Positions 12,721 to 37,828 of a DNA stretch of 64,000 nt are shown here, in pieces. The stretch is taken from NCBI GenBank assembly GCA_038915815.1, contig JBCLCL010000006.1:279-64278 (forward strand), written 5' to 3'. The position numbers and the translations under genes are program-made. This DNA comes from Candidatus Limnocylindrales bacterium (lineage in GTDB: Bacteria > Chloroflexota > Limnocylindria > Limnocylindrales > CSP1-4). The stretch's first letter is position 1, and each line of letters opens with the position of its first letter. Under the pieces are notes generated by a model that saw only the letters and a list, made by a program, of their open reading frames with translations, had not been told where the DNA came from and made no database searches.

Positions 12721-14108
12721 GTGAGCCGCCCGAGGGCACCACCGAACCACGGTCGATGCGAGCCCCGCGGCCGCGCGCCGTCCTCCTCGTCGCCAACACC
12801 GCCGCGCCTTATTCCCGGGGGCTGCGCGTCGCCCGTAGCCTGGCCGATGCCGGCTGGGAGGTCGAGACCGCGGCCGTCGCCGGCGATGGCGCGCCTCGAG
12901 AGGAACGGGACGGCGACGTCGTCACCTGCCGGTACGTCCCCAGCGGACCGTTCAGGCGCTGGATCGGCCAGCCACCCCCGCCGCGCCCACGCTCGAAACC
13001 GCTCAGGATCCTCGCGCTGAACGCCGACAAGGCGCTCAAGGTCGCGCTCTGGCCGCTCCACGTGCGCGCCTGGTGGCGAACGCTCCGCCGCCAGCTCCCC
13101 CCTGCCGACCTCTACCACGCCTTCGGGATCCTGACCCTGCCCGTCGCCCTCGACCTCGCTGGGGCGGCGCGACGCGCTGGTCGGCGCGGCCTCGTCGTCT
13201 ACGACGTGATCGATGCCATCCTCGATTCGAACAACTACCAGAACGTGCCCGGGCCGGTCCTCGCGCGCTACCGACGCAAGGAGGCCGGCTGGGTCCGTCG
13301 CGCCGATGCGGTCGTGACCGTCAACGACGCGCTGGCCGATCACTGTCGGCGTCTCTGGCCCTTTCGCGAGCGCCCGACGGTCCTGCTCAATGGCCAGCCG
13401 CGCTGGACCCCGCCGGACGAGCGGCCGAACCTGATTCGCGAGGCGACCGGGCTCCCGGCCGAGCGCCGGATCGTCCTCTTCCTCGGCAGGCTCGGGCGCC
13501 AACGCGGGCTTGAGACGGCGGCCGAGGCGGTCGTTCGCCTGAAAGACGCTGCGCTGGTGATGCTCGGGGCGAGCGTGAATCCGGAGTGGGATGCGGCGCT
13601 GGAGGCCCGCTCGAACGATCCGCGCTTCCTTGGCCGGCACGTCGTCCTGCCGCCGGTCCACCCGGACGAGGTCCGGCCATGGGCCGCGTCCGCGGACGTC
13701 TCGATCATCGCCGTTCCGGCCACCTCGCTCAACCAGCGCCTCTCGACCCCGAACAAGTTCTGGGAGAGCCTGGCGGCGGGCACGCCGGTGGTGATCGGGC
13801 GCGACCTCGAGGTCATGCGCGCGATCGTCGGACAGGATCGACTGGGCGCGGTGGCGGATCCCGCGGACCCCGACGACCTGGCCCGGGCGCTGCGCGAGAT
13901 CCTCGAGCAGTCTGCGAGCGACTACGCGGCCATGCGCGAGCGCTGCCTCACGGTCTCGCGTGATCGGTACGCCTGGGAGACGGCGGTCGGGCCGTATCTC
14001 GCGCTCGTGGCGCGACTGGCCACCGGTCCCGGAGATGCCGGTTCAGCCCGGGGCGGTCGAGCCGCTCACGTGCCCGGTCGGCCGGCGGAAGAGGACGATC
14101 TTGCTTGA
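12717..14108 (+). CDS. Family 4 glycosyltransferase
   Basis: GTG 12717 overlaps the upstream stop (GTGA); ATG 12756 is an alternative start. Contains AVLLVANTAAPYSRGLRVARSLADAGWEV and NKFWESLAAGTPVV. Confidence 0.8.
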   Translation: MSEPPEGTTEPRSMRAPRPRAVLLVANTAAPYSRGLRVARSLADAGWEVETAAVAGDGAPREERDGDVVTCRYVPSGPFRRWIGQPPPPRPRSKPLRILALNADKALKVALWPLHVRAWWRTLRRQLPPADLYHAFGILTLPVALDLAGAARRAGRRGLVVYDVIDAILDSNNYQNVPGPVLARYRRKEAGWVRRADAVVTVNDALADHCRRLWPFRERPTVLLNGQPRWTPPDERPNLIREATGLPAERRIVLFLGRLGRQRGLETAAEAVVRLKDAALVMLGASVNPEWDAALEARSNDPRFLGRHVVLPPVHPDEVRPWAASADVSIIAVPATSLNQRLSTPNKFWESLAAGTPVVIGRDLEVMRAIVGQDRLGAVADPADPDDLARALREILEQSASDYAAMRERCLTVSRDRYAWETAVGPYLALVARLATGPGDAGSARGGRAAHVPGRPAEEDDLA

Positions 14109-14900
14109 CGGAGCTGCGCCGCGGGCCAGCGCCACGCGATCTAGGGTCAGCATCAGCGGACCGAGCCAGTGGATGCTCGTGGGCGACGACTTCGCCCGGC
14201 GGGCGACCCAGCGCCACCAGCGGAGGTAGCGGTCATATGCGGCGCGCGAGCCGGCCTCGATCGGATTGTTCGCCATGGCCAGCGCGCCCCGCAGCTCGAC
14301 GAGCTCCAGGCCGGCGGCGAGGAGTGGATCGCGATAGGCGGCCAGCGCCCGGGCGCGCGAGGTCTGCGTCTCGGTGGGTGGGCGTTCGTAGGTGGCATCC
14401 AGCAGGATCGGCTCCACCAGGAGGAGCGATCCGCCCGGCCCGACCAGCCCGGCGATGTTCGTGAGTGCCCGCCGGAATGCCGCGTCGTCCGTGAGGTGGA
14501 GGAGGACGTTCATCACCGACACGAGACCGTACGGTCCGACCGGCAGGCCCGCGTCGGGCGCCCCGATGTCGGCGGCCACGAATCGGTCGCCGCGCGAGCC
14601 GAACTCGGCCCCGAGCCGCTCGACCGCCGCGGGGACGAGGTCGCAGCCGTCGACCCGAGCCACCCCGAGGTCGTGCCAGACCCGGGCCCAGTAGCCGGTT
14701 CCCGAGCCGACATCGAAGGCCGTCTCCACGCCCTGGAGCGCTTGGTGCCGGCGAACGAACCAGCGGACGCGCCGTTCGAGGGCCCGGTAGAGCCAGCCGT
14801 TCAGGTCGGCGGGCAGGCCGGACTGGCCGACGCTGGACAGATCGCCGCGGGCGTGGAGTCGTGCCCAGTGATCGCGCGGGTCGTAGAACATGGTCGCCAT
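14043..14900 (-). CDS. Class I SAM-dependent methyltransferase
   Basis: Has SAM-binding motif I (AFDVGSGTGYWARVW) and a post-I acidic residue (VDGCDL). ATG 14900 (MATMFYDPRDHW) is preferred over the ORF-track start at 14963. Confidence 0.8.
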   Translation of the reverse strand: MATMFYDPRDHWARLHARGDLSSVGQSGLPADLNGWLYRALERRVRWFVRRHQALQGVETAFDVGSGTGYWARVWHDLGVARVDGCDLVPAAVERLGAEFGSRGDRFVAADIGAPDAGLPVGPYGLVSVMNVLLHLTDDAAFRRALTNIAGLVGPGGSLLLVEPILLDATYERPPTETQTSRARALAAYRDPLLAAGLELVELRGALAMANNPIEAGSRAAYDRYLRWWRWVARRAKSSPTSIHWLGPLMLTLDRVALARGAAPSSKIVLFRRPTGHVSGSTAPG

Positions 14901-14989
14901 GGTGGCACACGGGCCGGGCGGTTCGAGCGTGGGGCGGCGGCGCCTGGCCGCCCCAGTGGTCACTCCTGGTGGTCACTCCTGGTGGGCCC

Positions 14990-15183
14990 GTTCTTCGGGG
15001 AAGGACAAAACCCGTGTCTTGGCGTCTGGCGGGCCTGGATCCTGCACTGCGCTGGGCGTATGACCCAAGGGACGTGGGTGAAGTGGCCAGATCTGCGTTG
15101 TCGGCGCGTCCCTTGTGGACCAAGGAACCCTCGAATGGACGATGCGCCGCCCGATTCGCGCGGTTTGTTCTCCCATGAAGAAC
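14990..15183. other. 194-bp intergenic element bounded by inverted AT-rich 18-nt motifs (copy A)
   Basis: The left end is GTTCTTC-GGGGA-AGGACA (14990-15007). The right end is TGTTCT-CCCAT-GAAGAAC (15166-15183). The same end architecture recurs at 36405-36608. Confidence 0.6.
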
Positions 15184-15205
15184 ACCAGCTGGAGCGCGAG
15201 GGCGG

Positions 15206-17044
15206 TTACTGTCGCGCGCCCATCTCAGCGTCCCAGCGATCGGCTAGCCAGCGGAGGGCGCCCGGAGCGAGGCGGATGCCCCTCCCGGCGAGGCGCGCGA
15301 TGAGCACCGCGGCCGGGGCGTCGAGGGCGACCAGCTCGACCGGCCCGACCGGCCCGACCGGCTCGACCGGCTCGACCGGCTCGCCCTTCGTTCTGGCGTC
15401 ACGGGCCGCAGCCAGCATGGCTTCGAGCAGCAGCTGCTCTCCGGCAGGAGCGGGCCGATCCAGGGCGCGCTGGAGCCGGGCGAGCGGACCCCGCCCACGC
15501 GGTCGCGGCTTCGGCGGCGGCACGCGAGCCGCCTCGTTCAGCCGGACCGGCCATTCGGTGTTGGGAGCTTCGGTGGCGCCCTCCTGCCACGCTGGAACGA
15601 CGAGCAAGAGGCGCGCCCGGAGATCGGCCGGGAGTTGGGCGACGAGGGGCAGGGCGTGGTCACGGCCGGTCGCCACCAGCACACGCGGCAGGCTGGAGGT
15701 CAGGGCGGAACCTGTCGCCGCGGGCGCGGTCGGGCGCTCGGCGCCGGGACCTGGCGCCCCACCCGTGACCCCGCTCGGATCGACCGTCGCCACGTCCGTC
15801 GCGGCGCTATCGGCCATCGCTCGCCGATAGATCTCCAGCGCCTGGCCGGCCACCGCCGCCTCGCCGACCGCGTGGACGAGCCGATCCCGCGCCGTGGCCG
15901 CGTCCAGTGGGACCGCCCCGGCAAGGAGAGCCTCGATGGCACTGGCGAACGCGTCGGCGTCGTTGCCATCGGCCACACTCCCGTACCCACCAGACAACCC
16001 GATGATCCATGGCACGCCGCCCGATCGCCGGGCGGCGACCGGCAGTCCGGTCAGGATCGCCTCCGCTGCGGCGACCCCGAACGTCTCGGATGGGCTCGGG
16101 TGGACGAGGACGGCCGCTCGCCCCATGGCCGCGGCCACGCCATCGCGGCCGAGCCAACCATCGAAGACGACCGCGCCGGCGACGCCCAGCTCGGCGGCCA
16201 GCGCCTCCCACCTTGCGCGTTCGCCGGCGGTCCGCTCGCGACCCACGAGGCGGAGTCGGAGGGTGGCTCTCGAAGCCTGCGATCGGGCGAATGCCCGGAG
16301 CAGGACGTCGATGCCCTTGTGCTCGCCGAGCGACCCGACCCAGAGCAGTTCGTCGGGATCCCGGCCGGCGGGATCGGCTAGCGGGAACGCCATGTCGGGG
16401 ACCGGGTTTGGCAGCACACCGATCCGGTCGGCAGGAACGCCAAGGAGCATCGCCAGGCGACCGGAGAGGGAGGGACTGACCCCGACCAACCGGACGCCCG
16501 GCCTCAGCAGGCCGCGATAGCACTCGAGCGCGACCGGGTCTGCCAGCTCGGTCTCGATCGTGCTCATGTGTTCGGTCACGACGACCGGGATCCCGAACTC
16601 CTGCCCGATCTCCGCGGCGACGATCCCGTCGGGCAGGCCGGTGTGGGCGTGGATCACGTCCGGACGCCACTCCTCGACGAGGCGCCCAACGAACGGTCGC
16701 AGCGCAGCCAGGTGGTCCTCGACCAACGCCGCTGGGTCGCCCGAACCCGGTCGGCGGACGACGGGGATACGCGCGACCGGCACGCCGGGAGCCCCGCGCG
16801 AGCGCGGTGTCGTGAAGAGCGCAGCCGGGGATGCGACCTGCTCGTACGCCACCCGGGCGGCCAGCAGCGCCGCATCGCGCTCCTCCAGGCGACCCCGGAC
16901 CAGCACGCGATCGAACGAAACGACCCGGGCCTCGACACCCGCCGCGACCGTGGCCGCCACGAGGTCGGCCACGAACGAGCCGCGCCCCGGCGAGTCATGC
17001 GACGGATACCAGCGGGCGACCGTCAGGACGCGCAGGGTTGGCAA
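15206..17044 (-). CDS. Family 4 glycosyltransferase with a roughly 200-aa C-terminal extension of unknown function
   Basis: The N-terminal 400 aa or so are GT4-like (LRVLTVARWYPSHDSPGRGSFV..., HPSPSETFGVAAAEAILTGLPV). The C-terminal part matches no motif I recognise and contains an EPV/GPV repeat. Confidence 0.8.
   Translation of the reverse strand: MPTLRVLTVARWYPSHDSPGRGSFVADLVAATVAAGVEARVVSFDRVLVRGRLEERDAALLAARVAYEQVASPAALFTTPRSRGAPGVPVARIPVVRRPGSGDPAALVEDHLAALRPFVGRLVEEWRPDVIHAHTGLPDGIVAAEIGQEFGIPVVVTEHMSTIETELADPVALECYRGLLRPGVRLVGVSPSLSGRLAMLLGVPADRIGVLPNPVPDMAFPLADPAGRDPDELLWVGSLGEHKGIDVLLRAFARSQASRATLRLRLVGRERTAGERARWEALAAELGVAGAVVFDGWLGRDGVAAAMGRAAVLVHPSPSETFGVAAAEAILTGLPVAARRSGGVPWIIGLSGGYGSVADGNDADAFASAIEALLAGAVPLDAATARDRLVHAVGEAAVAGQALEIYRRAMADSAATDVATVDPSGVTGGAPGPGAERPTAPAATGSALTSSLPRVLVATGRDHALPLVAQLPADLRARLLLVVPAWQEGATEAPNTEWPVRLNEAARVPPPKPRPRGRGPLARLQRALDRPAPAGEQLLLEAMLAAARDARTKGEPVEPVEPVGPVGPVELVALDAPAAVLIARLAGRGIRLAPGALRWLADRWDAEMGARQ
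15335..15379. repeat. 9-bp tandem repeat x5 (cYcgaccgg) inside the GT4 C-terminal extension
   Basis: The sequence is ctcgaccgg cccgaccgg cccgaccgg ctcgaccgg ctcgaccgg. It encodes (E/G)PV repeats on the minus strand. Confidence 0.9.
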
Positions 17045-25321: not shown

Positions 25322-26055
25322 CCATCGGCAATCGGCCGCCCATTATGCGAGCCGACGGGCGCGGACCCAACGACCTTCGACCGGTCAGCTTCACGCTCGG
25401 GGTCCAGAAGTGGGCCGAGGGCTCGTGTCGGATCCGGGTCGGCGACACCGAGGTCCTGTGCGCCGCGACGATCGTGGATCGGGTGCCGCCGCACCTGCGC
25501 GGGAAGGGGACCGGCTGGGTCACCGCCGAGTACTCGATGCTCCCGCGTGCCACGGCGGAGCGGACCGATCGCGAATCGGTCAAGGGCCGGATCGGCGGGC
25601 GGACCCACGAGATCCAGCGGCTGATCGGGCGCTCGCTGCGCGGCGTGGTCGATCTGACCCGGCTGGGAGAGCGGACCATCACGATCGACTGCGACGTCCT
25701 CCAGGCCGATGGCGGGACGCGGACGGCGTCGATCACCGGCGGATACGTCGCCCTCGCCGCGGCGCTGATCACCTACGGGATGGAGCGCCACCTTGTCGCC
25801 AAGGTCGCCGCCGTCTCGGTCGGCCTGGTCGATGGCGTCCCGTACCTCGACCTCGACTACCCGGAGGATTCGCGGGCGGACGTGGACTTCAACGTGGTCG
25901 GCACGGACGCCGGCGCCTACGTGGAACTGCAGGGGACCGCGGAGGGCAAGCCGTTCGACCGAGCGGCCGCCAGCGGCCTCCTGGACCTGGCCGACGCGGG
26001 GCTGGCCCGCCTGTTCGAGGCACAGGCCGCCGTGCTCGCCACCGTCCGACGGTGA
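25318..26055 (+). CDS. rph: Ribonuclease PH
   Basis: 245 aa. Contains [27 protein letters not shown] and [18 protein letters not shown]. Has an ATGA overlap with mazG. Confidence 0.95.
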
Positions 26056-26684
26056 GCCGCCGGCGACTCCTGGTCGCCACCCACTCCGAGCACAAGCTGC
26101 GCGAACTGCGCGAGTTGCTCGACCTGCGCCATACGGACCTCGTCTCGCTGCTCGACCTGGGCATCGCCGACGATCCGATCGAGGACGGGGCCACGTTCGA
26201 GACCAATGCCGCGATCAAGGCCCGTTTCGGCGCGCGGGTCTCCGGACTGCCGACGCTGGCCGACGATTCGGGCCTGGAGGTGGAGGCGCTCGGCGGCGGT
26301 CCGGGCGTGCGGACCCGCCGCTACGCGGGCGAGCACGCCAGCGATACCGACAACAACGCCAAACTGCTGGGCGCGCTGCGCGGCCTGCCGCCGGACCGCC
26401 GAGGCGCCCGGTACGTGTGTGTGCTGGCCCTGGCCCTCCCGGGTCCGGTGGGGCCTCGCGGCGGGCTTGCGGTGATCCTCTCCCGTGGGACCTGCCGCGG
26501 GCGGATCGCGACCGAGCCGCGTGGTGCCGGCGGCTTCGGCTACGACCCGATCTTCGAGCCGGCCTCGGAACCGCCCGGCGGCCGCACGCTGGGGCTGTGG
26601 AGCCCCGCCGAGAAGCACGCGATCTCCCACCGTGCCCGGGCCGCGCGTCGGATGACCCCCCACCTGGCCGCCCTCCACTTCTGA
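26052..26684 (+). CDS. rdgB: Non-canonical purine NTP pyrophosphatase (RdgB/HAM1 family)
   Basis: GTG 26052 overlaps the rph stop. Contains [44 protein letters not shown] and [10 protein letters not shown]. Confidence 0.9.
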
Positions 26685-26719
26685 CGATCCGGGCCCTGGG
26701 GTCGCCCACAGAGCAGGTA

Positions 26720-26747
26720 TTGACGCGGCAGCTGACTGGCATATGCT
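26720..26747 (+). promoter_or_regulatory. Candidate sigma-70-type promoter (TTGACG-N16-TATGCT) for the phospholipid operon
   Basis: The hexamers are at 26720-26725 and 26742-26747, 18 nt upstream of ATG 26765, in the only gap after rdgB. Confidence 0.35.
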
Positions 26748-26764
26748 CCGGGACGGCCAGCTGG

Positions 26765-27403
26765 ATGGACCGTTCCATTCCTGGTGGATATGGCTCCGGG
26801 GCTGCCGTGGACCTGTACCGATCCAAATCGACCGTCGCGCGCCGGCTGGAGCCCGTGATCGACCAGCTCGCGCGACGTGGTGTAAGTGCCGACACGCTGA
26901 CCCTGGCCGCCATTCCGGTCGGCTTCGTGGCTGGCGGGTGCCTCCTCCTGTCGCCGGTCATGCCCGTGGTCCTGTTGGCCGTCCCGCTGCTCGCCGCCGC
27001 CCGACTCATCCTGAATCTGCTCGACGGCGCGGTCGCCCGGCGGACTGAGCGGACCCATCCACGCGGCGAGCTCTACAACGAGCTGGGCGACCGGTTGACC
27101 GACGTCGCCTTTCTGGCGCCGGTTGCCTTCCTGCCGGGCGCGGACCGTACGATCGTGCTTCTCGGTGTGACGGGCGCCGTATTCGCGAGTTTCGCTGGGC
27201 TGGCTTCCCGGGCCGCCGGCGGCGAGCGAATCTATCGAGGCATCCTGTCCAAGCCAGGGCGGATGGTGCTCCTCGCCGTCTCCGCCGTCGCCGCCTTCGT
27301 CCTGGGCCCGCAAGCCTGGGGTCCATTCGGGCCCTTGTTGCTCCTCGGGACGGTGCTGACCGCCGCAGAGCGGATCTTCGTCGCGATTCGGAAGCTCGCG
27401 TGA
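26765..27403 (+). CDS. CDP-alcohol phosphatidyltransferase family protein (head-group specificity unknown)
   Basis: Has the family motif D-G-x2-A-R-x8-G-x3-D-x3-D, seen as LDGAVARRTERTHPRGELYNELGDRLTD. Multi-pass membrane protein. Confidence 0.8.
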   Translation: MDRSIPGGYGSGAAVDLYRSKSTVARRLEPVIDQLARRGVSADTLTLAAIPVGFVAGGCLLLSPVMPVVLLAVPLLAAARLILNLLDGAVARRTERTHPRGELYNELGDRLTDVAFLAPVAFLPGADRTIVLLGVTGAVFASFAGLASRAAGGERIYRGILSKPGRMVLLAVSAVAAFVLGPQAWGPFGPLLLLGTVLTAAERIFVAIRKLA

Positions 27404-28320
27404 TCGTCATCGATAGTGTGCCCGCGATCCTCCTGGTCGGTTCGGCTGCCGGTATCGCCGGAGCGAGCGTCTGGGCCCTGCTCCGGCACCTTCGGCCCCG
27501 GCCCGGCCTGACTGGGTGGACAGCCCTCCAGCGGTCGATGAGCTATGCGGCGCTCGCCCTGGTCCTGGCCGGCGCCGCCCAGCTGGGAACACCCGGGGTC
27601 GCCCTGCTGGTCGCCGGGCTCGGCGCGATCGGGTTGCTGGAATGGTCGCAGCTGATGGACCTGCCGGTTCACCACCGGGTCGCGTTGCAGGTGGCGAACG
27701 TGGCGATCGTCGCCTCGGCGGCGGTTCTCGGCACGGCTGCCGCCGAGTGGCTGATCGGCGGTCTGGTGCTGGTGGGGATCGCCTGGCCTGTGATCCGCGC
27801 CGATACCGGTCGGGCGCTGCGGGATCTGGGTTTGGCGGCCGTGGGCTGCGTAGCCATCCCGGTCCTGCTCGTCCACGGGGTCCTGCTCTCGGTGGAGCGC
27901 GGGGTGGCGGGGGTCACGTTGTTCACCGCCCTCGCGGTCGCCTGCGCGGGTTCGGATATCGGGGCGTTCATCGTCGGCCGGCGGTTCGGGCGAACGCCCC
28001 TGGCGCCGCGGCTCTCGCCCAGCAAGACTCGCGAGGGCGTCGTGGGTAACGTGCTGGGCGCGGCCATCGGCCTCGCCCCCTTCGCCGGTCTGCTCGTTCC
28101 CGAGTTCGGCCTCGCGTCGATCCTGGTGATCGTCGGGCTGGTCGCCGTCGGTGCGCTGTGGGGCGACCTGTTCGAATCGGCGGTGAAGCGCGAGGCCGGC
28201 GTGAAGGACGCGGCGCGGTGGCTGCCGGGCTTCGGCGGCATCCTCGACCGGATCGATTCCCTGCTCCTGGTCGTGCCCCTCGTCTACTGGGCGCTGCGAG
28301 TCGGGGAGGTGGCCGGGTGA
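27400..28320 (+). CDS. cdsA: Phosphatidate cytidylyltransferase (CDP-diacylglycerol synthase)
   Basis: Has the C-terminal signature SPSKTREGVVGNVLG...GDLFESAVKREAGVKD...LPGFGGILDRIDSLL. Its start overlaps the upstream stop. Confidence 0.9.
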   Translation: MIVIDSVPAILLVGSAAGIAGASVWALLRHLRPRPGLTGWTALQRSMSYAALALVLAGAAQLGTPGVALLVAGLGAIGLLEWSQLMDLPVHHRVALQVANVAIVASAAVLGTAAAEWLIGGLVLVGIAWPVIRADTGRALRDLGLAAVGCVAIPVLLVHGVLLSVERGVAGVTLFTALAVACAGSDIGAFIVGRRFGRTPLAPRLSPSKTREGVVGNVLGAAIGLAPFAGLLVPEFGLASILVIVGLVAVGALWGDLFESAVKREAGVKDAARWLPGFGGILDRIDSLLLVVPLVYWALRVGEVAG

Positions 28321-28970
28321 TGCGCGGCTGGCAATTCAGCACGGCCGCGATCCTGGCCCGCGAGGTGACCGCCTGGCTGTTCGGACCGATCGTCGTCTGG
28401 CTCCTGCACGGTCCACGGGTTCGCGGACGCGAGCACCTGAGATCGCTCGAGCACCCGTTCCTGCTCTGTCCAAGCCACGCCAGTCATCTCGATTTTTCGG
28501 CGGTGCGCCTCGCCCTGCGCTCTCGTCATCGGCAGAAGATCGTGGCTGCCGTCGCGGCGGACTACTTCACCGTCAGCCGACTCCGCTGGTTCATCGCGGC
28601 GTGGCTCGGTGCCTTCCCGTTCAACCGAACCGGACATGGCGGGCACGAAACCATCGACCAGGCGCTCGGCCTGCTCGAAGCCGGCTGGAGCGTCCTGGTC
28701 TTCCCCGAGGGGACTCGTAGCCGGACAGGCACGATGGCTCCATTCCGGCCCGGCATCGGGCTGATCGCGGTGAAGAGCGGCCGACAGGCGCTGCCGGTCC
28801 GGATCGTGGGCATCCACCGGGTGCTCCCACCCGGCGCCCGACGTCCACATCGCTCGCGAGTGGAGGTTCGCTTCGGCGCCCCCCTGCGTGCCGCGCCCGG
28901 CGAGGGCCCGCGAGCGTTCGCCGCGCGGCTGGAAGCGGCGGTCCGGGCCCTTGGCGACGATGACCGGTGA
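28320..28970 (+). CDS. plsC: 1-acyl-sn-glycerol-3-phosphate acyltransferase (LPLAT family)
   Basis: Has the HxxxxD motif (SHASHLD) and FPEGTRSRTG. The ATG at 28320 shares 1 nt with the cdsA stop. Confidence 0.85.
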   Translation: MRGWQFSTAAILAREVTAWLFGPIVVWLLHGPRVRGREHLRSLEHPFLLCPSHASHLDFSAVRLALRSRHRQKIVAAVAADYFTVSRLRWFIAAWLGAFPFNRTGHGGHETIDQALGLLEAGWSVLVFPEGTRSRTGTMAPFRPGIGLIAVKSGRQALPVRIVGIHRVLPPGARRPHRSRVEVRFGAPLRAAPGEGPRAFAARLEAAVRALGDDDR

Positions 28971-29536
28971 GGGTCCTCGACGGCCTGACGCGTTTCGCCC
29001 GCCAGCCGGCCGCTATCGCGACGATCGGTCTGTGGGCGATGGCAGAAGCGGTCGTCCTGCCGATCGTCCCCGACGTCGGGCTGTTGCTGCTCGTCCTCGC
29101 CGCACCGCGTCGGGCCGTGCACTTGTTCGCGGCGGTGGTCGTCGGCGGACTCGTCGGCACGGCGCTCCTGGCCGCCCTTTCCGCGGCGGCGCCCGAAACG
29201 GTGCGAGCCATGCTGCTCAGCCTGCCCGGGATCGACCCAGCGGTGCTGGCCGAGGCCGAGGGGACGCTGGCTCGGCACGGGATCGCCGGTTTCGCGCAGT
29301 TTGGGCCGGGCGAGCCGCTGAAGGTCTCCACGGTCGCATGGGTCGGCCAGGGTGGCGAGATCCCGGGCTTGCTTGCAGGGGCGCTGCTCAACCGGCTCAC
29401 GCGGATCGGCCCCGCCTTGCTTGTCTCGGTCGCGATCGGCTCGCTCCTGGGTCGGTGGATCCGCCGGCACGAGCGTCTGACCCTGTCGGTCTACGGCGTC
29501 ACGTGGCTCCTGGTCTACGCCGTCTACCTGGGCTGA
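28967..29536 (+). CDS. DedA/YqaA-like (SNARE-associated) membrane protein
   Basis: 189 aa and hydrophobic. The N-terminal GLWAMAEAVVLPIVPDVGLLLLV resembles the YqaA/DedA re-entrant motif. Has a GTGA overlap with plsC. Confidence 0.55.
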   Translation: MRVLDGLTRFARQPAAIATIGLWAMAEAVVLPIVPDVGLLLLVLAAPRRAVHLFAAVVVGGLVGTALLAALSAAAPETVRAMLLSLPGIDPAVLAEAEGTLARHGIAGFAQFGPGEPLKVSTVAWVGQGGEIPGLLAGALLNRLTRIGPALLVSVAIGSLLGRWIRRHERLTLSVYGVTWLLVYAVYLG

Positions 29537-29546
29537 CCGCGGCCAC

Positions 29547-30620
29547 TCAGGCGGGCCCGTTGCGCCGCAGGAGCTCCACCCTTCCATAGAGTGCCGTCCG
29601 CTCCTCCTCGACGAGATCCCGCGGTCCGTCCTCGGCGACCAGATCCGGGTGTGGAGGCAATCCGCCGTCCCGCAGGATGCTCCGCACAAGAACGCGTCCG
29701 CCAGGTCGCACTGCGTGGACAAGGGCGATCGCAAGACGCGTTCCGCTGGCCGGGTCGAGCCAATCCGGCACGTTCGAGACGGTGACCGCGTCGAATCGCC
29801 CCGGCGGCATCCCGGCGAGCACCTGGGCCAGATCGCCCCGAACGAGGCGGATCACGGCGGCGGACTCGGCTACCTCCGTCGCGATGGCCCGATCGAGCCA
29901 GCACGCCCCGTCCCCGGGGTCGGCGGCGCGGCCGCTGAACGCCGGCCGCCACCAGGGATGGCGTCGGGCCAGCGTCCGGCCGAGCACGCCGTCGATCCGT
30001 CCGGCGATGGCCACCGAGTAGCCGCCTTCCCGCATCCGCCGCAGCTCGTGGCCGTTCGGTGCCAGGGGCGACAGGACCGCGGTGTGTCGGGCCAGCCAAT
30101 GGGTCAGCGGACCGAACAGGCGAGGCTGGACGTGGGACCGCCACCAGCGCTGTTGCTCCCGCTGATCGTCGAATGCCTCGATCTGCCGACCCAGGCTCGG
30201 CACGATCAGCCGCAGCGCGCGCCCGAACCAGGCGAATGACCGCCCCACCCCGGCGTGCCGATGGAAGTCGTGCTCGAAGGCGCCGATATGGACGTCCCAG
30301 AATGCGGCATCGGCAGACGCCAATCGCGGGCGGATCACCCGTCGATAGCGACCGACCGGATCGGCCACCCGGCCGACCTCGAACCAGCGGTAGCGCTCGT
30401 CCGGGTCGAGTCCGGCGGCCGCGATCTTGAGCGCCGACAGGTGGAGCTGGGCGGCGTTGAGATCGACCGCCACGACTTCCGCCGCGCCGGCCGCGGCGAG
30501 GGCCAACGGGACGTCGCCGGCAGCCGCGATGCACAGCACTCGTTCTCCAGGGGTGATCGCGAGGGCGGCCATGTCGAGGCGGTCGTCCTCCCATGCCCGG
30601 GTGAACACGATCCCGCTCAT
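29547..30620 (-). CDS. DUF3419 / BtaA-like SAM-dependent (3-amino-3-carboxypropyl-transferase-like) protein
   Basis: The N-terminus FTRAWEDDRLDMAALAITPGERVLCIAAAGDVPLALA...VVAVDLNAAQLHLSALK matches the conserved W-E-D ... GxGD ... DlN..Q core of the BtaA/DUF3419 family. The C-terminus has SNVPDWL. Confidence 0.75.
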   Translation of the reverse strand: MSGIVFTRAWEDDRLDMAALAITPGERVLCIAAAGDVPLALAAAGAAEVVAVDLNAAQLHLSALKIAAAGLDPDERYRWFEVGRVADPVGRYRRVIRPRLASADAAFWDVHIGAFEHDFHRHAGVGRSFAWFGRALRLIVPSLGRQIEAFDDQREQQRWWRSHVQPRLFGPLTHWLARHTAVLSPLAPNGHELRRMREGGYSVAIAGRIDGVLGRTLARRHPWWRPAFSGRAADPGDGACWLDRAIATEVAESAAVIRLVRGDLAQVLAGMPPGRFDAVTVSNVPDWLDPASGTRLAIALVHAVRPGGRVLVRSILRDGGLPPHPDLVAEDGPRDLVEEERTALYGRVELLRRNGPA

Positions 30621-31936
30621 CAGAAGTCGCGGAAGACGGTCGCCCGTTTGCCGCTCGCTGGACGAGGGATGGCCTCGACCGGACGGACACGGATGGTCAG
30701 CCCGGTCCCGATCAGCTCCCTCCGGAGGGAGTCGCCGATCACGTCCTCGATCCCCGGATCGAAGCTCAAGCCCGGCACGAACTCGAAGTCAGCATGGGCA
30801 GGATCGGCCTGGACGAAGCGATAGGCACTTGCGGCGCCTTCGCCGGCCGCGATGAGGGCGCGATAGCAGACATCGAGCAGGAAGCCGGGGGCAAGGGGTC
30901 GACCGTCGCCGAGCACGAAGCCGTCGTTACTGCGACCGGCCAGATCCACGAGCAGGCGCGTCTGGCGCCCGCACGTGCACCGCTCGTCGCTGATCCGGGC
31001 CAGGTCTCCCTGCCGATATCGAACGAATGGCATCGTTCGGTTATGGAACTCCGTCCCGACGATCTCGCCGATCCCGTCGGTCGGCAGCCCGTCCGGGTCG
31101 AGCGTCTCGATGTGGACGACATCCTCGTGGAGGTGGTATCGGCCGTCGGGGCATTGGGAAGCGATCCGGCCGAGTTCCTCGGAGCTGTATTCGTCGCGGA
31201 CCCGGCAACCGAGCGCGTGCTCCCAGCCGTCGCGCTCCTCCTGCGTCGAGAGTTCCGAGCCGACCGACACGCCCTTGAGACCCAGCCGCCGCATCCGCTC
31301 CGGGTCGAGCGACACCAGGTCCCGCAATACCGATGGATATGTGTGGAGGAGGTGCGGGCGGAATGCGATCAAGCCGGCGAGGATCACCTCGGGTTGGCCG
31401 GAGGTCGGGATGAATCGCATCGGGTAGAGCAGAGGGACACGGAGCAGCGGGTACTCGGAGGTGTAGACATACGCCTGGCGCCACCAGAATGGATAGCTTC
31501 CCCCCGCGGCCCAGCGCAGCATCCGCTGGCCGGACAGGAGGTACGGCCAGAAGCGGTCGGCCCGGTGCGGGACCGTCATCATCCGTCCGCTCGACCCGGA
31601 GCTGGTGGAGAGCAGGCAGGCGGCGAGGTCGCTGCCGCGAGCGATCGAGCGATCGGGATAGCCGTCGACGATCGTCGGCTTGTCCATCAGCGGCAGGCGA
31701 TGGACGTCTTCCCAGGTGTGGATCGCGACGGGGTCGATGCCTGCTTCGCGGTAGCGCTCGGCGTAGACGGGGACCGTCAGGCCGGCGTGCACGGCCATCT
31801 CACGGGTGCGCCGCAGGGCGAACGCGTCCAACCGCTCACGATCCGCCCACTCGCGGCGCGCGTAGAGCGGCCAGCAGCCCGCGGTCATGGCCAGGTTGAT
31901 CGCATATTCGCGAGCGGTCAGACGGCGCAGTGGCAT
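30620..31936 (-). CDS. PaaK / coenzyme F390 synthetase-like adenylate-forming enzyme
   Basis: Has the adenylation P-loop TSSGSSGRMMTVPH and IVGTEFHNRTMPFVRYRQGDL. The size (438 aa) is typical of the PaaK/CapK-like family. ATG 31936 is preferred. Confidence 0.7.
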   Translation of the reverse strand: MPLRRLTAREYAINLAMTAGCWPLYARREWADRERLDAFALRRTREMAVHAGLTVPVYAERYREAGIDPVAIHTWEDVHRLPLMDKPTIVDGYPDRSIARGSDLAACLLSTSSGSSGRMMTVPHRADRFWPYLLSGQRMLRWAAGGSYPFWWRQAYVYTSEYPLLRVPLLYPMRFIPTSGQPEVILAGLIAFRPHLLHTYPSVLRDLVSLDPERMRRLGLKGVSVGSELSTQEERDGWEHALGCRVRDEYSSEELGRIASQCPDGRYHLHEDVVHIETLDPDGLPTDGIGEIVGTEFHNRTMPFVRYRQGDLARISDERCTCGRQTRLLVDLAGRSNDGFVLGDGRPLAPGFLLDVCYRALIAAGEGAASAYRFVQADPAHADFEFVPGLSFDPGIEDVIGDSLRRELIGTGLTIRVRPVEAIPRPASGKRATVFRDF

Positions 31937-31955
31937 CGGCCCCTCCCAGACGGCA

Positions 31956-34472: not shown

Positions 34473-34503
34473 CGCGCCACCTCTGCTGAGTCGTCTCGTC
34501 CTG

Positions 34504-35172
34504 TCAGTCTGCGGATGCCTTCCCGACCAGATCGGCGAGGGTCTGGGCCGCTCCTTCGCGCAGGGGCGGATAATGGCTGAATACGATCATCTGGACGTCC
34601 AGCCCGGCGAGTCGTTTCACGCTCGCCCGTGCGGCCACCACGTCGTCGCTGTAGAGCCAGCTGGCGAAGACCACGCCCGTGCGACGCCGTTGCAGCACGT
34701 CACCCACGAACAAGAGCCGGTCGCGCCGGGCGTACAGGCAGACGCTCCCGGGGGTGTGCCCTGGGGTGTGGATCACCTCGAGTCCGCCCGCCACCGGCAG
34801 GACGTCGCCGTCGGCCAGCGGGATGACCGCGTCCGGCATGGGCGTCATGGCCGCGAACAACCGGCCTCGGGTCGGGCGGCGCAGCGCCTGGCGCATGTCC
34901 ACCCGCAGTCCGTCGTGGTCGGCCGGATGCATCAGGACGTCGGCGCCGCGGGCCGCCAGCTCCCGGGCCCCGCCGGCGTGATCCGGGTGGCCGTGCGTGC
35001 AGACGATCCGGGCGATGTCGTCCAAGGTCCGCCCGTGGTGAGCGAGGTAGGCCGCCATGAGTCGGCCGGACCCTGGGAGCCCGGCATCGATCAGGGTCGG
35101 ACGCGGCTCCAGGAACAGATGCCCCTGCGCGCCAAGGAGCTGGACGGCGTGGACGCCCGGCCAGATCTCCAT
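34504..35172 (-). CDS. Metallo-beta-lactamase-fold hydrolase
   Basis: Has the HxHxDH motif (CTHGHPDHAGG) and the downstream TPGHTPGS. ATG 35172 (MEIWPGVHAV) is preferred over the 454-aa ORF-track call. Confidence 0.85.
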   Translation of the reverse strand: MEIWPGVHAVQLLGAQGHLFLEPRPTLIDAGLPGSGRLMAAYLAHHGRTLDDIARIVCTHGHPDHAGGARELAARGADVLMHPADHDGLRVDMRQALRRPTRGRLFAAMTPMPDAVIPLADGDVLPVAGGLEVIHTPGHTPGSVCLYARRDRLLFVGDVLQRRRTGVVFASWLYSDDVVAARASVKRLAGLDVQMIVFSHYPPLREGAAQTLADLVGKASAD

Positions 35173-35297
35173 CCCTCTCCTCGGTCCGTCGGCCCGCGAC
35201 TCGAGATCGGGCTCGCGATTCGTCGAACCCGCCCGTAGGTATGATGGGCGACGCCGCGTGGGACGCAGTCTACGGCCGTTCGTGAACGCGAGATCGT

Positions 35298-35374
35298 CGG
35301 GGAGTAGCGTAGCCTGGTAACGCACGTGCTTTGGGAGCACGAGATCGTGGGTTCGAATCCCGCCTCCCCGACCA
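35298..35374 (+). tRNA. tRNA-Pro (anticodon UGG)
   Basis: Hand-folded cloverleaf: acceptor CGGGGAG/CTCCCCG, D stem GCGT/ACGC, anticodon stem CGTGC/GCACG with loop TTTGGGA, T arm GTGGG-TTCGAAT-CCCGC, and an encoded CCA. Confidence 0.9.
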
Positions 35375-35520
35375 ATCCCCGCGGCCGTCGCCCTCGATCC
35401 GTCGAGGCGTGGTAGGGTGGAACCTCGCCGCACTGCGCGGCGAACCGTCGCGTGGTCACCCCTCTTCTCGAACGGACCGTGCGCTGTGCAATCCCAGTTC
35501 GGGGAATGTTGGAGGTCATC

Positions 35521-35724
35521 ATGGCCACCGGTACCATCAAGAAGGTCGTTTCGGACCGCGGCTTCGGCTTCATCGCCGCAGAGGATGCGAAGGAATACTT
35601 CTTCCATCGCGACGGCCTGGACGCTTCGCTCAACTTCGATCGCCTGATCGGCGGCGAGCGCGTCGAGTTCGAAGTCGAAGCCAGCCCGAAGGGCCCGCGC
35701 GCCACCAAGGTGCGCGCCGCCTGA
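35521..35724 (+). CDS. Cold-shock domain protein (CspA family)
   Basis: 67 aa. MATGTIKKVVSDRGFGFIAAED carries the RNP-1 motif (RGFGFI). ATG follows GGAGGTCATC. It has a long (about 145 nt) upstream untranslated region. Confidence 0.9.
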   Translation: MATGTIKKVVSDRGFGFIAAEDAKEYFFHRDGLDASLNFDRLIGGERVEFEVEASPKGPRATKVRAA

Positions 35725-35746
35725 GCGTACGGCCTGACCGTATGAT

Positions 35747-35770
35747 GTGGCCCGTCTTCGGACGGGCCAC
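35747..35770 (+). terminator. Intrinsic terminator hairpin after the csp gene
   Basis: A perfect 10-bp stem (GTGGCCCGTC / GACGGGCCAC) with a TTCG loop lies 23 nt after the stop, followed by a T-containing tail (aactcgttctt). Confidence 0.65.
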
Positions 35771-35824
35771 AACTCGTTCTTGACCCACGAGGCTCGTTCG
35801 CAAACCGCCAGCCCGGAGGCCGCG

Positions 35825-36241
35825 ATGCCCGGCGAACCGACCGTTCGCGAGATGCGTGTCGTCGTCACGGCGACTGACTACGTCGAAGCCGTCCACTTCT
35901 ACCGCGACGTGCTGGGTCTTCCCGAACTGGCCGATTACTCTTCCGCGGACGGACGGGTCGTGCTCCTCGGCGCAGGGCGCGCCACCCTCGAGATCGTCGA
36001 TCCCGCGCAGGCCGAGTACATCGATCGGGTGGAGGTCGGTCGGCGGGTGGCGGGGCACATCAGGGTCGCCCTTGAAGTGGCCGACTCGGCCGCGACGTCT
36101 CGACTGCTGGCTGCCGATGGCGCCATGCTGCTGGCCGACGCCACCCTGACGCCGTGGCAGTCCGTCAACGCACGCCTGGAAGCTCCGGCGGGGCTCCAGC
36201 TCACACTCTTCACCGAAGCCTCGGCCGTCTTGCCGGACTGA
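35825..36241 (+). CDS. VOC (glyoxalase/bleomycin-resistance/dioxygenase) family protein
   Basis: The sequence VVVTATDYVEAVHFYRDVLGL...ATLEIVD...IRVALEV shows the typical paired beta-alpha-beta-beta-beta module pattern. ATG 35825 is preferred. Confidence 0.65.
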   Translation: MPGEPTVREMRVVVTATDYVEAVHFYRDVLGLPELADYSSADGRVVLLGAGRATLEIVDPAQAEYIDRVEVGRRVAGHIRVALEVADSAATSRLLAADGAMLLADATLTPWQSVNARLEAPAGLQLTLFTEASAVLPD

Positions 36242-36404
36242 CTGCCGACCGCCCGGCTGCCGGGTAGCCGTGCACGCCGTGCCCGGCCCCGCTCAAGTCG
36301 CGCCGGGTCGTGCCCCAGCCGCGCCCAGCAAGGTCCCCGCTCGGGCTCCGTCCAGCCCCCGCAGGGAGTCTCGCTGGTCCCCGCTCGCGCCCGCACGGGC
36401 GCCC

Positions 36405-36608
36405 GTTCTTCCCAGCAGGACAAACGCGCGATTCGCCACGCTCGAGGGTGGCCGGCAGGGCGCGAACCGCTCATCGCGCGCCCATCTGGCCTCGTTTCGT
36501 GGTCAGGGGAGCGGTTTGCCAGCGTCGATCGGGGGTTTGGGAGCTCCTGCCGGCGTTCAGCAGCGTCCCAGTGCCCCGATCGACGTAGTCTGTTCTCCCG
36601 GGAAGAAC
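36405..36608. other. 204-bp intergenic element bounded by the same inverted AT-rich 18-nt motifs (copy B)
   Basis: The left end is GTTCTTC-CCAGC-AGGACA (36405-36422). The right end is TGTTCT-CCCGG-GAAGAAC (36591-36608). It lies in a 440-bp gap between convergent genes. Confidence 0.6.
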
Positions 36609-36684
36609 ACACGCCGTCTGCGCACCTGCTCACGCTGCATCCCTGTCTCGTTGCGATTCGGGCCGGCGGCCCGAGGCGCTGGCC

Positions 36685-37121
36685 TCAGGCCACCGCCGAG
36701 ACGATCGAGACGACCGCAAAGCCCCCGATCGTGACTCCGGACGCGAGGTTGGTCCGCCGGATCCAGCTCGGCGTCACCCGCGTCCGCACGGCCGACACCG
36801 TGGACGTGAGCGGCACCCACCAGGCGCTCGAGCATGTGGCGAGCTTCGTGCCGTGTTCCAGGCCAGCCAGAGCAGGAAGATCCCACCAGCGAGGGCGAGG
36901 CCCTGGCGCGCATCCACCAGGACCTGGCTGATCGCCCCGAGCCCGAAGGCCGCGATCGCACCGTAGGTGGCATCGGCTGTCGCGACGCCCAGGCCGGACA
37001 CCAGCCCCACGATGCGACCCTCGGCCAGCGTCCTCCGGATGACGAGCAGGCTGATCGGACCGACGGCAGCGGCGATCGTGAAGCCGAGGATGAAGCCGCG
37101 AAGCGCGACCCCGGGATCCAT
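36685..37121 (-). pseudogene. LysE/RhtB-family amino-acid exporter, frameshifted and internally deleted
   Basis: The N-terminal frame (ATG 37121 after GGGAGGA) reads MDPGVALRGFILGFTIAAAVGPISLLVIRRTL...WLAWNTAR and is LysE-like, then runs into junk. The LysE-like C-terminus (WWVPL...GVTIGGFAVVSIVSAVA*) is in another frame ending at 36685. The total is about 145 codons, against roughly 200 expected for this family. Confidence 0.5.
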
Positions 37122-37263
37122 CGGTCCTCCCTCTGCAGGCATGGCGGGCGCCTTGTCGCCTGGGACTGGCCATGATCGACCCTCTCGGGTTACTCTCTCG
37201 TCACACAGCGTTCGGCGTGGTGCGGGTCGCCACCCACGCCGGCAAGGTCATCGAGGTACGCGC

Positions 37264-37569: not shown

Positions 37570-37620
37570 TCCTGGCCCGCTCGAGCGGGATGTAGCATCC
37601 TCCTGGGCGCGGTACCCGAC

Positions 37621-37697: not shown

Positions 37698-37828
37698 ATC
37701 CCGGGACCCGGGGTGTACGGTCGTCCAGACGGCTGGTCGCACCCGGACCCCCGTACCATTGCTGCGCCCACGTCTCCGGCCCATCCTCGGCCTGTACCGG
37801 GAGCTTGTCCCGGGCGTGGAGGCGCTGA

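Follow-up and report, generated by a model that had tools for sequence, protein, structure and literature searches.

A putative family of helically phased, non-coding DNA elements of about 200 bp in Chloroflexota, with a copy in a glycan locus

Proteins that bind two separated DNA sites can close the DNA between them into a loop, as AraC does between O2 and I1 (about 210 bp), GalR between OE and OI (113 bp, with HU), and DeoR. For looped operators and for short IS50 derivatives, the two sites need to lie on the same face of the helix, the spacing has a period of about 10.5–11 bp, and bending of the DNA between the sites aids closure. Goryshin, Kil and Reznikoff reportedly found in 1994 that very short IS50 derivatives transpose with an efficiency that is periodic with length, at about 10.5 bp. 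Dyad-symmetric termini are commoner for operators and recombinase core sites than for the ends of DDE transposons, and the repeats of invertons contain an identical crossover core of 2 bp (serine recombinases) or 6–8 bp (tyrosine recombinases). Phased ~10-bp GC/AT variation is the signature of the extended binding motif of gyrase, whose footprint is roughly ±65 bp; gyrase sites are overrepresented in the palindromic BIME-2 elements and on the downstream side of transcribed operons (PMC6379681).

Here we analysed a 64-kb stretch of DNA (the window), in which a sequence-only reading had picked out a 194-bp segment within a glycan locus and had offered three hypotheses for it, namely a structured RNA, a MITE or an invertible switch. 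The end motifs it described, GTTCTTC-GGGGA-AGGACA (14990–15007) and TGTTCT-CCCAT-GAAGAAC (15166–15183), do bound 194 bp, and the flanking genes have the GT4 and methyltransferase identities that it gave them (Pfam). Its estimate that the ends could pair over about 20–25 bp agrees with the 25-nt arms given by a repeat finder (14990–15014 and 15159–15183), which are 76% complementary (19/25 nt). That reading missed that each end is itself palindromic and that the segment is a member of a dispersed, helically phased family. We refer to the segment as element A and to a second member in the window as element B, and the features are as follows.

14043–14900, minus strand: gene for a class I SAM-dependent methyltransferase of 285 aa, downstream neighbour of element A (Pfam)
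14927–15227 (boundaries approximate), no strand: species-specific DNA around element A, for which six related species have no counterpart between the GT4 and methyltransferase genes
14956–14981, plus strand: perfect 13-bp tandem duplication, GTGGTCACTCCTG x2, ending 8 bp before GTTCTTC (14990), the left end of the element
14983–15010, plus strand: left terminus of element A, 28-bp site (positions -6 to +21), PWM score 34.3 bits; motif G-n-C-nnn-Y-GTTCTTC-nnn-G-n-AGGACAAAA, dyad GTTCTTC/GAAGGAC with its centre at 14998
15011–15162, no strand: interior of element A, 152 bp, non-coding, with A/T patches at 10.5-bp intervals that are in register with the two termini
15163–15190, minus strand: right terminus of element A, the same 28-bp site inverted, GTTCTTCATGGGAGAACAAAC on the minus strand, PWM score 37.9 bits; dyad centre at 15175
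15206–17044, minus strand: gene for a GT4-family glycosyltransferase, upstream neighbour of element A (Pfam)
36398–36615, no strand: element B, termini starting at 36405 (plus) and 36608 (minus), span 204 bp, PWM scores 37.5 and 34.2 bits

The start of the methyltransferase was set at the ATG at 14900 because the 285-aa product is 100% identical, over its full length, to the database protein P0001. On the other side, the last few codons and the stop of the GT4 gene fall within the species-specific DNA, as seen in the junction alignment. The spacer that holds element A has a GC content of ~63% versus ~73% in genes, and its GC3 (GC by codon position) is flat, as expected of non-coding DNA. Two open reading frames in this region were rejected: a 70-aa frame on the minus strand (14973–15185) spans A exactly, with flat GC3 and no Pfam match, but the frame is not common to B, which differs in length by 10 nt, and B and its orthologue L001 show 1-nt indels; a 553-aa frame on the plus strand (14169–15830) has no Pfam match and the wrong GC3 phase and is spurious. 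No sigma-70-like promoter was found in 14700–15400 and no terminator was found at element A, and blastn with the element against plasmid and phage collections gave no match. The perfect 13-bp duplication that had also been pointed out is present but strain-specific; four sibling assemblies are missing it and have a different 12-bp duplication adjacent, and it is one of eight perfect tandem duplications of 10 bp or more in the window. It is a strain-specific slippage product that lies outside the element.

The end motifs, whose AT-rich 7-mers had been noted to stand out in this G+C-rich DNA, occur beyond chance in the window. GTTCTTC is present four times and GAAGAAC five times in the 64 kb, and two of each belong to elements A and B. 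With up to two mismatches, the 18-nt pattern has seven matches, which correspond to four sites, versus 0.89 expected, and 0 of 100 shuffles reach seven. Element B sits where a glyoxalase/VOC gene (35747–36241, plus strand) and a LysE-family gene converge at their 3′ ends, and differs from its orthologue L001 by indels that are not multiples of three. An estimate of constraint from comparing the window with L023 was dropped; the divergence between the two is uninformative because it is a recombination mosaic.

Elements A and B, together with nine further loci from at least six other MAGs or metagenomes of Chloroflexota type, make up a family of 11 elements with 22 termini. Members outside the window were found by patterns that demanded intact ends and a span of 181–214 bp, and the genome and metagenome pattern scans covered spacings of 145–180 bp. 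Ascertainment therefore accounts in part for how well the forced bases are conserved and for where the length range ends; read in this way, the consensus over 22 of 22 termini is G-n-C-nnn-Y-GTTCTTC-nnn-G-n-AGRACAAAC, each terminus with its own dyad (GTTCTTC/GnAGRAC) made of two 7-bp arms whose centres are 10 bp apart around an odd, 3-bp centre. Conservation also extends to bases that the patterns did not force, with G at position -6 in 18 of the 22 termini, C at -4 in 17 of 22, a pyrimidine at position 0 in all 22, and R15 and A18–A20 conserved as well. Each end is a putative binding site of ~28 bp for a sequence-specific protein.

The terminal sites occur only as inverted pairs, with PWM scores of 27–39 bits, and no solo or degenerate site was found above thresholds of 6–14 bits in the ~384 kb scanned. 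Apart from the opposite strand of the same sites, nothing else in the window reaches 6 bits; ~180 kb of related genomes contained no sites, and a pattern scan of a viral contig collection gave no matches. Left and right ends are identical at the central positions 8, 9, 10 and 12 in 3/10, 2/10, 6/10 and 2/10 independent elements, respectively, and at the variable positions the two ends of an element match no better than ends taken from different elements. The ends would be recognised in trans and not through end-to-end pairing. At least eight of the 11 elements abut the 3′ end of a gene and five lie between convergent genes, and the neighbours are unrelated housekeeping genes with no common function and not surface-glycan loci, for which A is the exception. 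L008 and L010 had been candidates for distant orthologues of A or B and were rejected, since L008 has as its neighbours a transaldolase and a protein of 573 aa that is unrelated to GT4, and the VOC protein flanking L010 is of a different subfamily. An asymmetric head module at one end (CCGAWTCGG...CTCGRGGG) was likewise dropped, as an HMM built on it missed the other members and its GAWTC is the first A/T rung at +29, which is found on both sides. No consistent direct repeat that could be a target-site duplication was found in 10 elements at offsets of 0–15 and lengths of 2–9. Searching the literature for the motif gave only primer noise, and for MITEs in Chloroflexi nothing relevant; the family, made up of non-coding Chloroflexota DNA elements of ~200 bp, is apparently undescribed so far.

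The spans of the 11 elements are 193, 194, 194, 204, 205, 205, 205, 206, 207, 214 and 214 bp, which form classes of 193–194, 204–207 and 214 bp. When these spans were subjected to a Rayleigh test, the best period was 10.5 bp with R = 0.80 (p = 0.0004 for a fixed period and 0.0015 with the period scanned). Measured from dyad to dyad, the distances are 176–177, 187–190 and 197 bp, so that the inverted ends are ~17, 18 or 19 helical turns apart and therefore on the same face of the helix. The length classes could in part be subfamilies by descent.

The interiors between these ends have no detectable sequence homology; A and B align with scores at z = -0.9 and 0.4 versus shuffles, and the sole pair of interiors that does align is the orthologous pair, B and L001 (z = 8.5). 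What the interiors have in common is a periodicity in A/T content of 10.5 bp, which gives a sharp peak with z = 12.6 when the elements are pooled, is individually significant in eight of the 11 with phases that cluster, and for element A alone reaches p = 0.004 versus shuffles. Counting inward from each terminus, the A/T peaks fall at about +8, 18.5, 29, 40, 51, 61, 71, 82, 92 and 102. The ladder that they form keeps step with the dyad centres (its peak is at 8.0 mod 10.5, the dyad at position 9) and runs unbroken through the middle of the element (z = 2.9 for the central 63 nt). As a blind scan, we ranked some 64,000 windows of 160 bp across the 64 kb by their 10.5-bp periodicity, and B (36422–36581) came first and A (15007–15166) second. 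In most other loci, the elements likewise rank first or close to it; L002 lacks the 10.5-bp periodicity. With a wedge model, whose curvature we count as supportive only, nine of the 11 elements are in the most curved 10% with moderate absolute curvature, and B is the most curved 190-bp window in the stretch. Judging from its base sequence, the interior DNA is patterned to bend, with an A/T patch at each helical turn.

Conservation of the motif at the orthologous locus in relatives had been put forward as a test. Six related species have no element A at their orthologous GT4-methyltransferase junction; in these species, the two genes overlap or are 34–51 bp apart. Element B was found in two species and is missing from four others, and in the closest of these four the convergent stops are 52 bp apart. 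Both A and B show insertion polymorphism at orthologous sites. At A, the gained DNA exceeds the repeat-bounded unit by ~100 bp; from the junction alignments it consists of the 194-bp element plus ~44 nt and ~63 nt of extra flank. Exact insertion boundaries and an empty-site footprint were set aside since the GC-rich spacers align ambiguously; the ACGC repeat of 4 bp that may be present at A is too weak to be taken as evidence. That this copy lies in a glycan locus is incidental. It is a species-specific insertion that splits a normally overlapping gene pair, and element A is no evidence for phase-variable glycan expression.

From these results, we put at about even the chance that the 194-bp segment is a copy of a dispersed, dispensable family of non-coding, double-stranded DNA elements in Limnocylindria-type Chloroflexota, that this family is MITE-like, and that it does not act as RNA. 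A dimeric protein of the helix-turn-helix type would fit the 10-bp spacing of the arms at each end. The interior would bend preferentially toward the face on which the protein is bound, and therefore one protein complex could bridge both ends in a loop or wrap of ~190 bp. Most likely, the element would be a MITE-like, non-autonomous mobile element that is insertion-polymorphic. A transposase or recombinase encoded in trans would have to synapse the two ends across a stiff segment of 200 bp, which would account for a length that is quantised and an interior that can bend. A copy in this genome would have landed between two glycan-pathway genes that normally overlap.

Among the three original hypotheses, the MITE therefore survives in an atypical form only, and the invertible switch and the structured RNA do not. 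Several observations speak against a classical MITE: there is no target-site duplication, the interiors of A and B are unrelated within one genome, the apparent copy number is low (two in 64 kb and zero in ~180 kb of relatives), decayed or solo ends are lacking, the DNA gained at A exceeds the repeat-bounded unit, no autonomous element or cognate transposase came to light with pattern scans at spacings of 145–180 bp, and the termini have a dyad symmetry that is less typical of DDE transposons. A more tentative reading, which we would not favour but take seriously, is that the elements are a new device, a stretch of ~200 bp of DNA selected for its mechanics, in which A/T rungs would pre-bend the helix toward two palindromic clasps on the same face. 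Such a device could be a mobile element that makes no target-site duplication and is handled by a dimer-of-dimers recombinase, with only the ends and the bending code under constraint, or it could be a domesticated chromatin or topology element, a microloop or wrap clasped by protein at the ends of transcription units in Limnocylindria.

Somewhat unlikely, in our view, is that the elements are not selfish DNA at all but high-affinity host sites of an architectural or topological kind at the ends of transcription units for a DNA-wrapping or looping protein, such as gyrase, a nucleoid-associated protein or a tetrameric bridging protein, with the palindromes as clasps. The A/T phasing of the elements resembles the gyrase-motif signature (PMC6379681), their preference for gene 3′ ends (≥8/11) and for positions between convergent genes (5/11) would suit such a role, the element is symmetric about its centre, and where sites occur they are intact and paired, while elsewhere they are missing altogether, without decayed relics. 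However, the positions differ between close species, which is odd for a site that the host needs, and the copies seen are very few. The termini would call for more than gyrase, because they are ~100 bp from the centre and so outside the ±65-bp footprint, and the periodicity passes through the centre without a break and without a distinct cleavage motif there. An improbable reading, by analogy with paired operators, is that a repressor or activator loops the DNA at A and would control the methyltransferase or read-through from GT4. The dyad-symmetric sites with arm centres 10 bp apart, the integral number of turns that puts them on one helix face, and the position of A directly upstream of a gene are all consistent with it, but no promoter was detected, the five members between convergent ends have no gene to regulate, the neighbours are functionally unrelated, and the site pair is not kept at orthologous loci.

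The invertible promoter favoured by the geometry of the glycan locus fares slightly worse still and is quite improbable. It would require that a recombinase encoded elsewhere flips the interior of 150–170 bp, with the phasing and bendability serving assembly of the invertasome. Inverted, dyad-symmetric sites ~200 bp apart do look like recombinase core sites, several loci per genome carry one end consensus, and helical phasing with a bendable interior would help an invertase to synapse its sites. Yet the central positions 8–10 and 12 match only at chance level in the 10 independent elements, and because of this there is no common crossover core and no homogenisation by repeated exchange; the centre of the terminal palindrome is also odd, at 3 bp. 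There is no promoter-like site inside A, and a switchable promoter would have no target at the many copies that lie between convergent 3′ ends (5/11), in contexts that are not glycan loci. In the assemblies that we compared, the orientation of A is constant across five of this species, and B has one orientation in three genomes (the window, L023 and L001), one of which is from another species. In line with the earlier observation that the window has no recombinase gene, no recombinase domain was found among the window ORFs tested or in the precomputed Pfam annotation of L016 and L023. Least probable by far is a structured RNA, that is, a small RNA, a 3′-UTR element or a processing stem with pairing ends or terminal hairpins. 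The ends pair over 19 of 25 nt, each end forms a 7-bp hairpin, and R15 lies opposite T3, where a G-U wobble is possible on one strand, but on the same strand the wobble argument breaks at the other end. The RNA folding check that had been suggested gave fold energies no better than those of shuffles on both strands (z = +0.48 and +1.25), and Rfam gave no match even at E ≤ 10, the best within the A region being noise and the only matches in the window being two tRNAs outside element A. The interiors cannot be aligned, neither the closing stem nor the rest shows covariation (RNAalifold covariation term -0.21 kcal/mol), and no promoter or terminator was found. A length quantum of 10.5 nt with an A/T ladder is natural for duplex DNA, and we know of no meaning that it would have for RNA.

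With this family, bacteria may provide a clean natural case of selection on DNA mechanics: sequences that are otherwise unrelated vary in length by steps of one helical turn and carry, between two candidate protein sites, a phase-locked A/T ladder with a 10.5-bp period. Constraints on looping and synapsis that come from engineered lac, ara and IS50 constructs become testable on natural elements. The 28-bp site is a precise bait for the partner protein in an abundant, uncultivated lineage of soil and freshwater, and the 28-bp PWM combined with the spacing rule can be used to detect and annotate these elements with specificity.

Compared with known systems, the family is most like MITEs such as the Correia elements of Neisseria, which are also ~200 bp long and non-coding with inverted repeats of ~25–28 bp, are dispersed in intergenic DNA, especially at gene ends, are present or absent between related genomes, and are presumably handled by a protein encoded elsewhere. 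Unlike MITEs, the family has no target-site duplication, its copies share ends but not interiors even within one genome, it is low-copy with no decayed copies, each terminus is dyad-symmetric, element length changes in steps of a helical turn, and the A/T ladder of the interior is phase-locked at 10.5 bp. REP, BIME-2 and REPIN sequences are similar in being inverted, extragenic palindromic units at 3′ ends and between convergent genes whose positions vary between species, and BIME-2 and the strong gyrase site of phage Mu are similar in their link to a DNA-wrapping enzyme through a phased ~10-bp motif (E. coli; PMC6379681). In contrast to these, the family has no GTAG or CGTC tag and its termini begin with (Y)GTTCTTC, it is not high-copy (four sites in 64 kb and none in ~180 kb of relatives), its units are ~160 bp apart instead of adjacent, with termini outside a gyrase-sized footprint, and it lacks the long hairpin of REP doublets, as interior self-complementarity is weak. 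The invertons fimS of E. coli and those of Bacteroides capsule loci are likewise segments of ~150–300 bp with inverted repeats, found at several loci per genome with one repeat consensus, and one copy here is in a glycan locus; unlike invertible promoters, the family has ends with no identical core, no promoter, a single orientation in the assemblies, no recombinase nearby, and contexts that are often the convergent 3′ ends of housekeeping genes. Finally, what would be a protein-bridged loop in the family resembles the operator loops and IS50 in its same-face sites, helical spacing and bending between the sites. Unlike in operator loops, the sites of the family are not at promoters, the phasing is found in natural sequence variation, and the intervening DNA itself carries what appears to be a bending code.

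At the junction of a GT4 glycosyltransferase gene and a class I methyltransferase gene, the sequence-only reading had pointed to a segment with inverted end motifs, and this observation is confirmed: GTTCTTCGGGGAAGGACA lies at 14990-15007 and TGTTCTCCCATGAAGAAC at 15166-15183, enclosing 194 bp (element A), and a repeat finder recovers the perfect 13-bp tandem duplication reported at 14956-14981. The flanking genes are also as reported:

15206..17044, minus strand: GT4 glycosyltransferase, adjoining element A
start ATG 14900: class I methyltransferase, 285 aa, adjoining element A

Identity of the 285-aa product with database protein P0001 places the methyltransferase start at ATG 14900. The arms of element A are 25 nt long by the repeat finder with 76% complementarity, and each end is also palindromic in itself (GTTCTTC-nnn-GnAGRAC, two 7-bp arms, 10 bp centre to centre). 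The spacer has a GC content of ~63% overall, compared with 70% for the window, and its codon-position GC is flat at 0.62-0.70 versus a GC3 of ~0.88 in genes, which marks it as non-coding; ORFs across the element were rejected as genes (wrong codon statistics, no family matches). Within the GT4 gene, positions 15330-15375 hold five in-frame 9-bp tandem repeats (CGACCGGCC/T), in a ~240-aa C-terminal extension where no Pfam domain was found.

A 7-mer search of the window found a second end pair at 36405-36608 (element B), 21 kb away from the glycan locus, where a glyoxalase/VOC gene and a LysE-family gene converge with their 3′ ends on either side of it. Allowing two or fewer mismatches, the window holds 7 matches to the 18-nt pattern, representing 4 sites, versus 0.89 expected, and 7 was reached by no shuffle. 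Four further members came from an exact-pattern scan of GTDB species genomes (three Chloroflexota MAGs, one of them a Limnocylindrales bin, and a 1.6-kb contig binned as Thermoanaerobaculia), and five additional distinct loci came from metagenome contigs with a relaxed pattern, giving a family set of 11 elements and 22 termini; none was found in viral contigs, plasmids, or phages. The 1.6-kb contig (L004, JBBQDQ010000359.1) is binned within Acidobacteriota, reflecting either a binning error or a phylum-crossing element.

The consensus of the 22 termini is G(-6)-n-C(-4)-nnn-Y-GTTCTTC-nnn-G-n-AG-R-ACA-A-A-C. Conservation extends to positions that the search patterns left free (-6 G in 18/22, -4 C in 17/22, and A18-A20), and in all termini position 0 is a pyrimidine and position 15 a purine, neither of which was forced by the patterns. 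Real sites score 27-39 bits with a terminus PWM, and the rest of the window scores <6 bits, the opposite strand of the same palindromes excepted. Scans of ~384 kb of sequence at thresholds of 6-14 bits found no solo or degenerate sites, and therefore sites occur only as inverted pairs. The interiors are non-homologous (A versus B, z ~0); the sole aligning pair is B and L001 (z = 8.5), which are one locus in two species. An apparent conserved module at one element end failed an HMM test.

Close homologues of the methyltransferase number in the hundreds. Six related species (81-86% protein identity) have GT4 and methyltransferase genes that either overlap, by 1-11 nt, or leave a gap of 34-51 bp, with no terminus sites at the locus. 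From these element-free junctions, we conclude that the lineage of this species gained the ~300 bp at 14927-15227, which splits a gene pair that is otherwise probably translationally coupled. The gain exceeds the repeat-bounded unit by ~100 bp, and no target duplication is evident at A. Four additional MAG assemblies from this species have an identical A in the same orientation; strains differ only just outside it, by the 13-bp duplication in the window and a different one, of 12 bp, in the other four. Tandem duplications of 12-16 bp lie no more than ~35 bp from a terminus at three independent elements (window 14956-14981 and 9928 in L016, a related stretch for locus A; 2850 in L003; 12578 in L008). 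The palindromes close by could have provoked these through slippage, or their position could be coincidental, given that 8 perfect duplications ≥10 bp long occur in the window.

Besides the window, element B occurs in a sibling genome (96.5% identical) and in one Limnocylindrales MAG, where the flanks are 83% and the element ~70% identical, and it is absent in four other lineages, the closest of which has 52 bp between the convergent stops. Across the family, convergent 3′ ends flank 5 of the 11 elements, and at least three more adjoin one 3′ end. The genes next to the elements are housekeeping genes unrelated to one another (transaldolase, formate-tetrahydrofolate ligase, TsaE, FAD oxidoreductase, DUF885, VWA protein, aldehyde dehydrogenase); the 573-aa neighbour at L008 is unrelated to GT4 and presumably resembles CTP synthase in its N-terminal sequence. 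The family is dispersed and dispensable, and a local paired operator is unlikely.

Several other features lie around B, including two tRNA genes ~1 kb either side of its neighbourhood:

35298-35371: tRNA gene
37621-37694: tRNA gene

A metallo-beta-lactamase-fold ORF, 34504..35868(-), overlaps the first tRNA, so its true start must be downstream. To the right of B, the LysE-family gene (36685-37173) appears disrupted, with a GC3 phase switch near 36.85 kb between ORFs 36685..37173 and 36774..37142, and the call in the sibling genome is only 115 aa versus 204-222 aa in relatives. Against the sibling stretch (L023), window 25827-44843 shows mosaic divergence, almost identical at 27-35 kb and with up to 100 differences/500 bp at 40-45 kb, a pattern that indicates recombination tracts. 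An 11-kb segment (~44850-55870) is missing from L023, where the flanking genes are contiguous, marking a strain-variable island; it carries UbiA-like and PPDK-like genes and a second DUF3419/AMP-binding set paralogous to that at 29.5-34.5 kb. Perfect tandem repeats of 12 and 22 bp (CGTGGCCGGCTG-type) cluster at 40298-40380, near the boundary between an N6/N4 DNA methyltransferase gene and an AAA_16/GerE regulator gene.

The spans of the 11 elements are 193, 194, 194, 204, 205, 205, 205, 206, 207, 214, and 214 bp, where the searches admitted 181-214 bp only. By Rayleigh test the best period is 10.5 bp (R = 0.80). Leaving out the orthologue, p is 0.0004 for a period fixed at 10.5 bp and 0.0015 when periods of 9.5-11.5 are scanned, and the length classes may partly be shared descent. 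Dyad-to-dyad distances (span minus 17) are 176-177, 187-190, and 197 bp, which equal 17, 18, and 19 turns at ~10.4 bp per turn, and therefore both palindromes lie on one helical face.

The interiors, too, are patterned in a way that would favour bending. With the 21-nt termini removed, pooled interiors show a 10.5-bp A/T periodicity over shuffles (z = 12.6 for W and 8.6 for WW), with no signal at 10.0 or 11.0; it is individually significant in 8 of 11 elements, whose phases relative to the terminus cluster at 1.3 to 2.6 rad. Anchored on the terminus, A/T peaks fall at about +8, 18.5, 29, 40, 51, 61, 71, 82, 92, and 102, with troughs of 1-3/20 between them, and thus the ladder is in phase with the dyad centre (position 9). 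It is weaker yet present at the element centre (z = 2.9), and it is compositional, with no sequence repeat. In a blind sliding scan of the 64-kb window (~64,000 windows), the top two, 36422-36581 and 15007-15166, are B and A, and ranks 3 and 4 are coding DNA. Elsewhere, L004, L005, and L007 rank first, L008 at 0.02%, L006 at 0.8%, and L010, L001, and L003 at 3-5%, so that most other loci are at or near the top; L002 has no periodicity signal. As supporting evidence only, a static wedge model ranks B as the most curved 190-bp stretch of the window and 9 of 11 elements in the top 10%; because the curvature is moderate in absolute terms, it is safer to speak of anisotropic bendability. GAWTC, a subset of GANTC, is enriched 7-10-fold inside elements, chiefly at the first A/T rung at +29. 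An N6_N4 DNA methyltransferase gene (L023 13504-14451, window ~39.3-40.3 kb) lies ~3 kb from B, and an element-free glyoxalase-LysE spacer (L034 764-1056) has three CCGAATC/GGAATC motifs close together, a motif that may thus occur in these genomes independently of the element.

At every variable position, in or outside conserved blocks, the left end of an element agrees with its own right end no better than with ends taken from other elements. This argues against selection for intramolecular pairing, whether as RNA or as a single-strand closing stem, against a shared crossover core, and against homogenisation through recombination between ends; the independent fit of each end to the consensus is what recognition by a sequence-specific protein would predict. 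A structured RNA, as the sequence-only reading had suggested, is unlikely on this ground and because both strands fold with the same energy as shuffles, RNAalifold added only trivially invariant pairs, and Rfam found only two tRNAs over the window, away from the element, and nothing relevant at E ≤ 10. An inverton is improbable, although phasing would aid synapsis there too: it fails on core identity, promoter (14700-15400 has no sigma-70-type promoter or intrinsic terminator), and context, and the assemblies compared show a single orientation, which leaves the suggested phase-variable switch of the glycan locus unsupported.

Judged from sequence, the family is defined by two protein-type sites on one helical face with a phased, bendable spacer between them, an unusual and quantifiable DNA-mechanics signature in a family that appears undescribed so far, as far as searches could show. 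We infer that a dimer would bind each end and that the ends would be bridged to form a loop or wrap of ~190 bp, with the A/T minor grooves and the dyad-centre minor groove at each end facing one side and the DNA bending toward protein bound at the palindromes. Biologically, a non-autonomous mobile element of a MITE-like kind is the likeliest reading, since insertion polymorphism, intergenic and 3′-end bias, and size all fit. A transposase or recombinase that has to synapse ends only 200 bp apart would impose both the length quantum and the bendability; Goryshin et al. (1994) reportedly found such a 10.5-bp dependence in short IS50 derivatives. The strongest competing reading is a site with an architectural or topological role for the host: the published gyrase motif has phased 10-bp GC variation, and enrichment of gyrase sites is described both downstream of operons and at palindromic BIME-2 elements (PMC6379681). 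Counting against it, the elements turn over fast in position and their termini lie outside a gyrase footprint. The MITE-like reading is the nearest of the three first proposed, with points that count against it: the family comes without target duplication, interior homology between copies, relics, or a known parent element, and it is low in copy number with dyad-symmetric ends.
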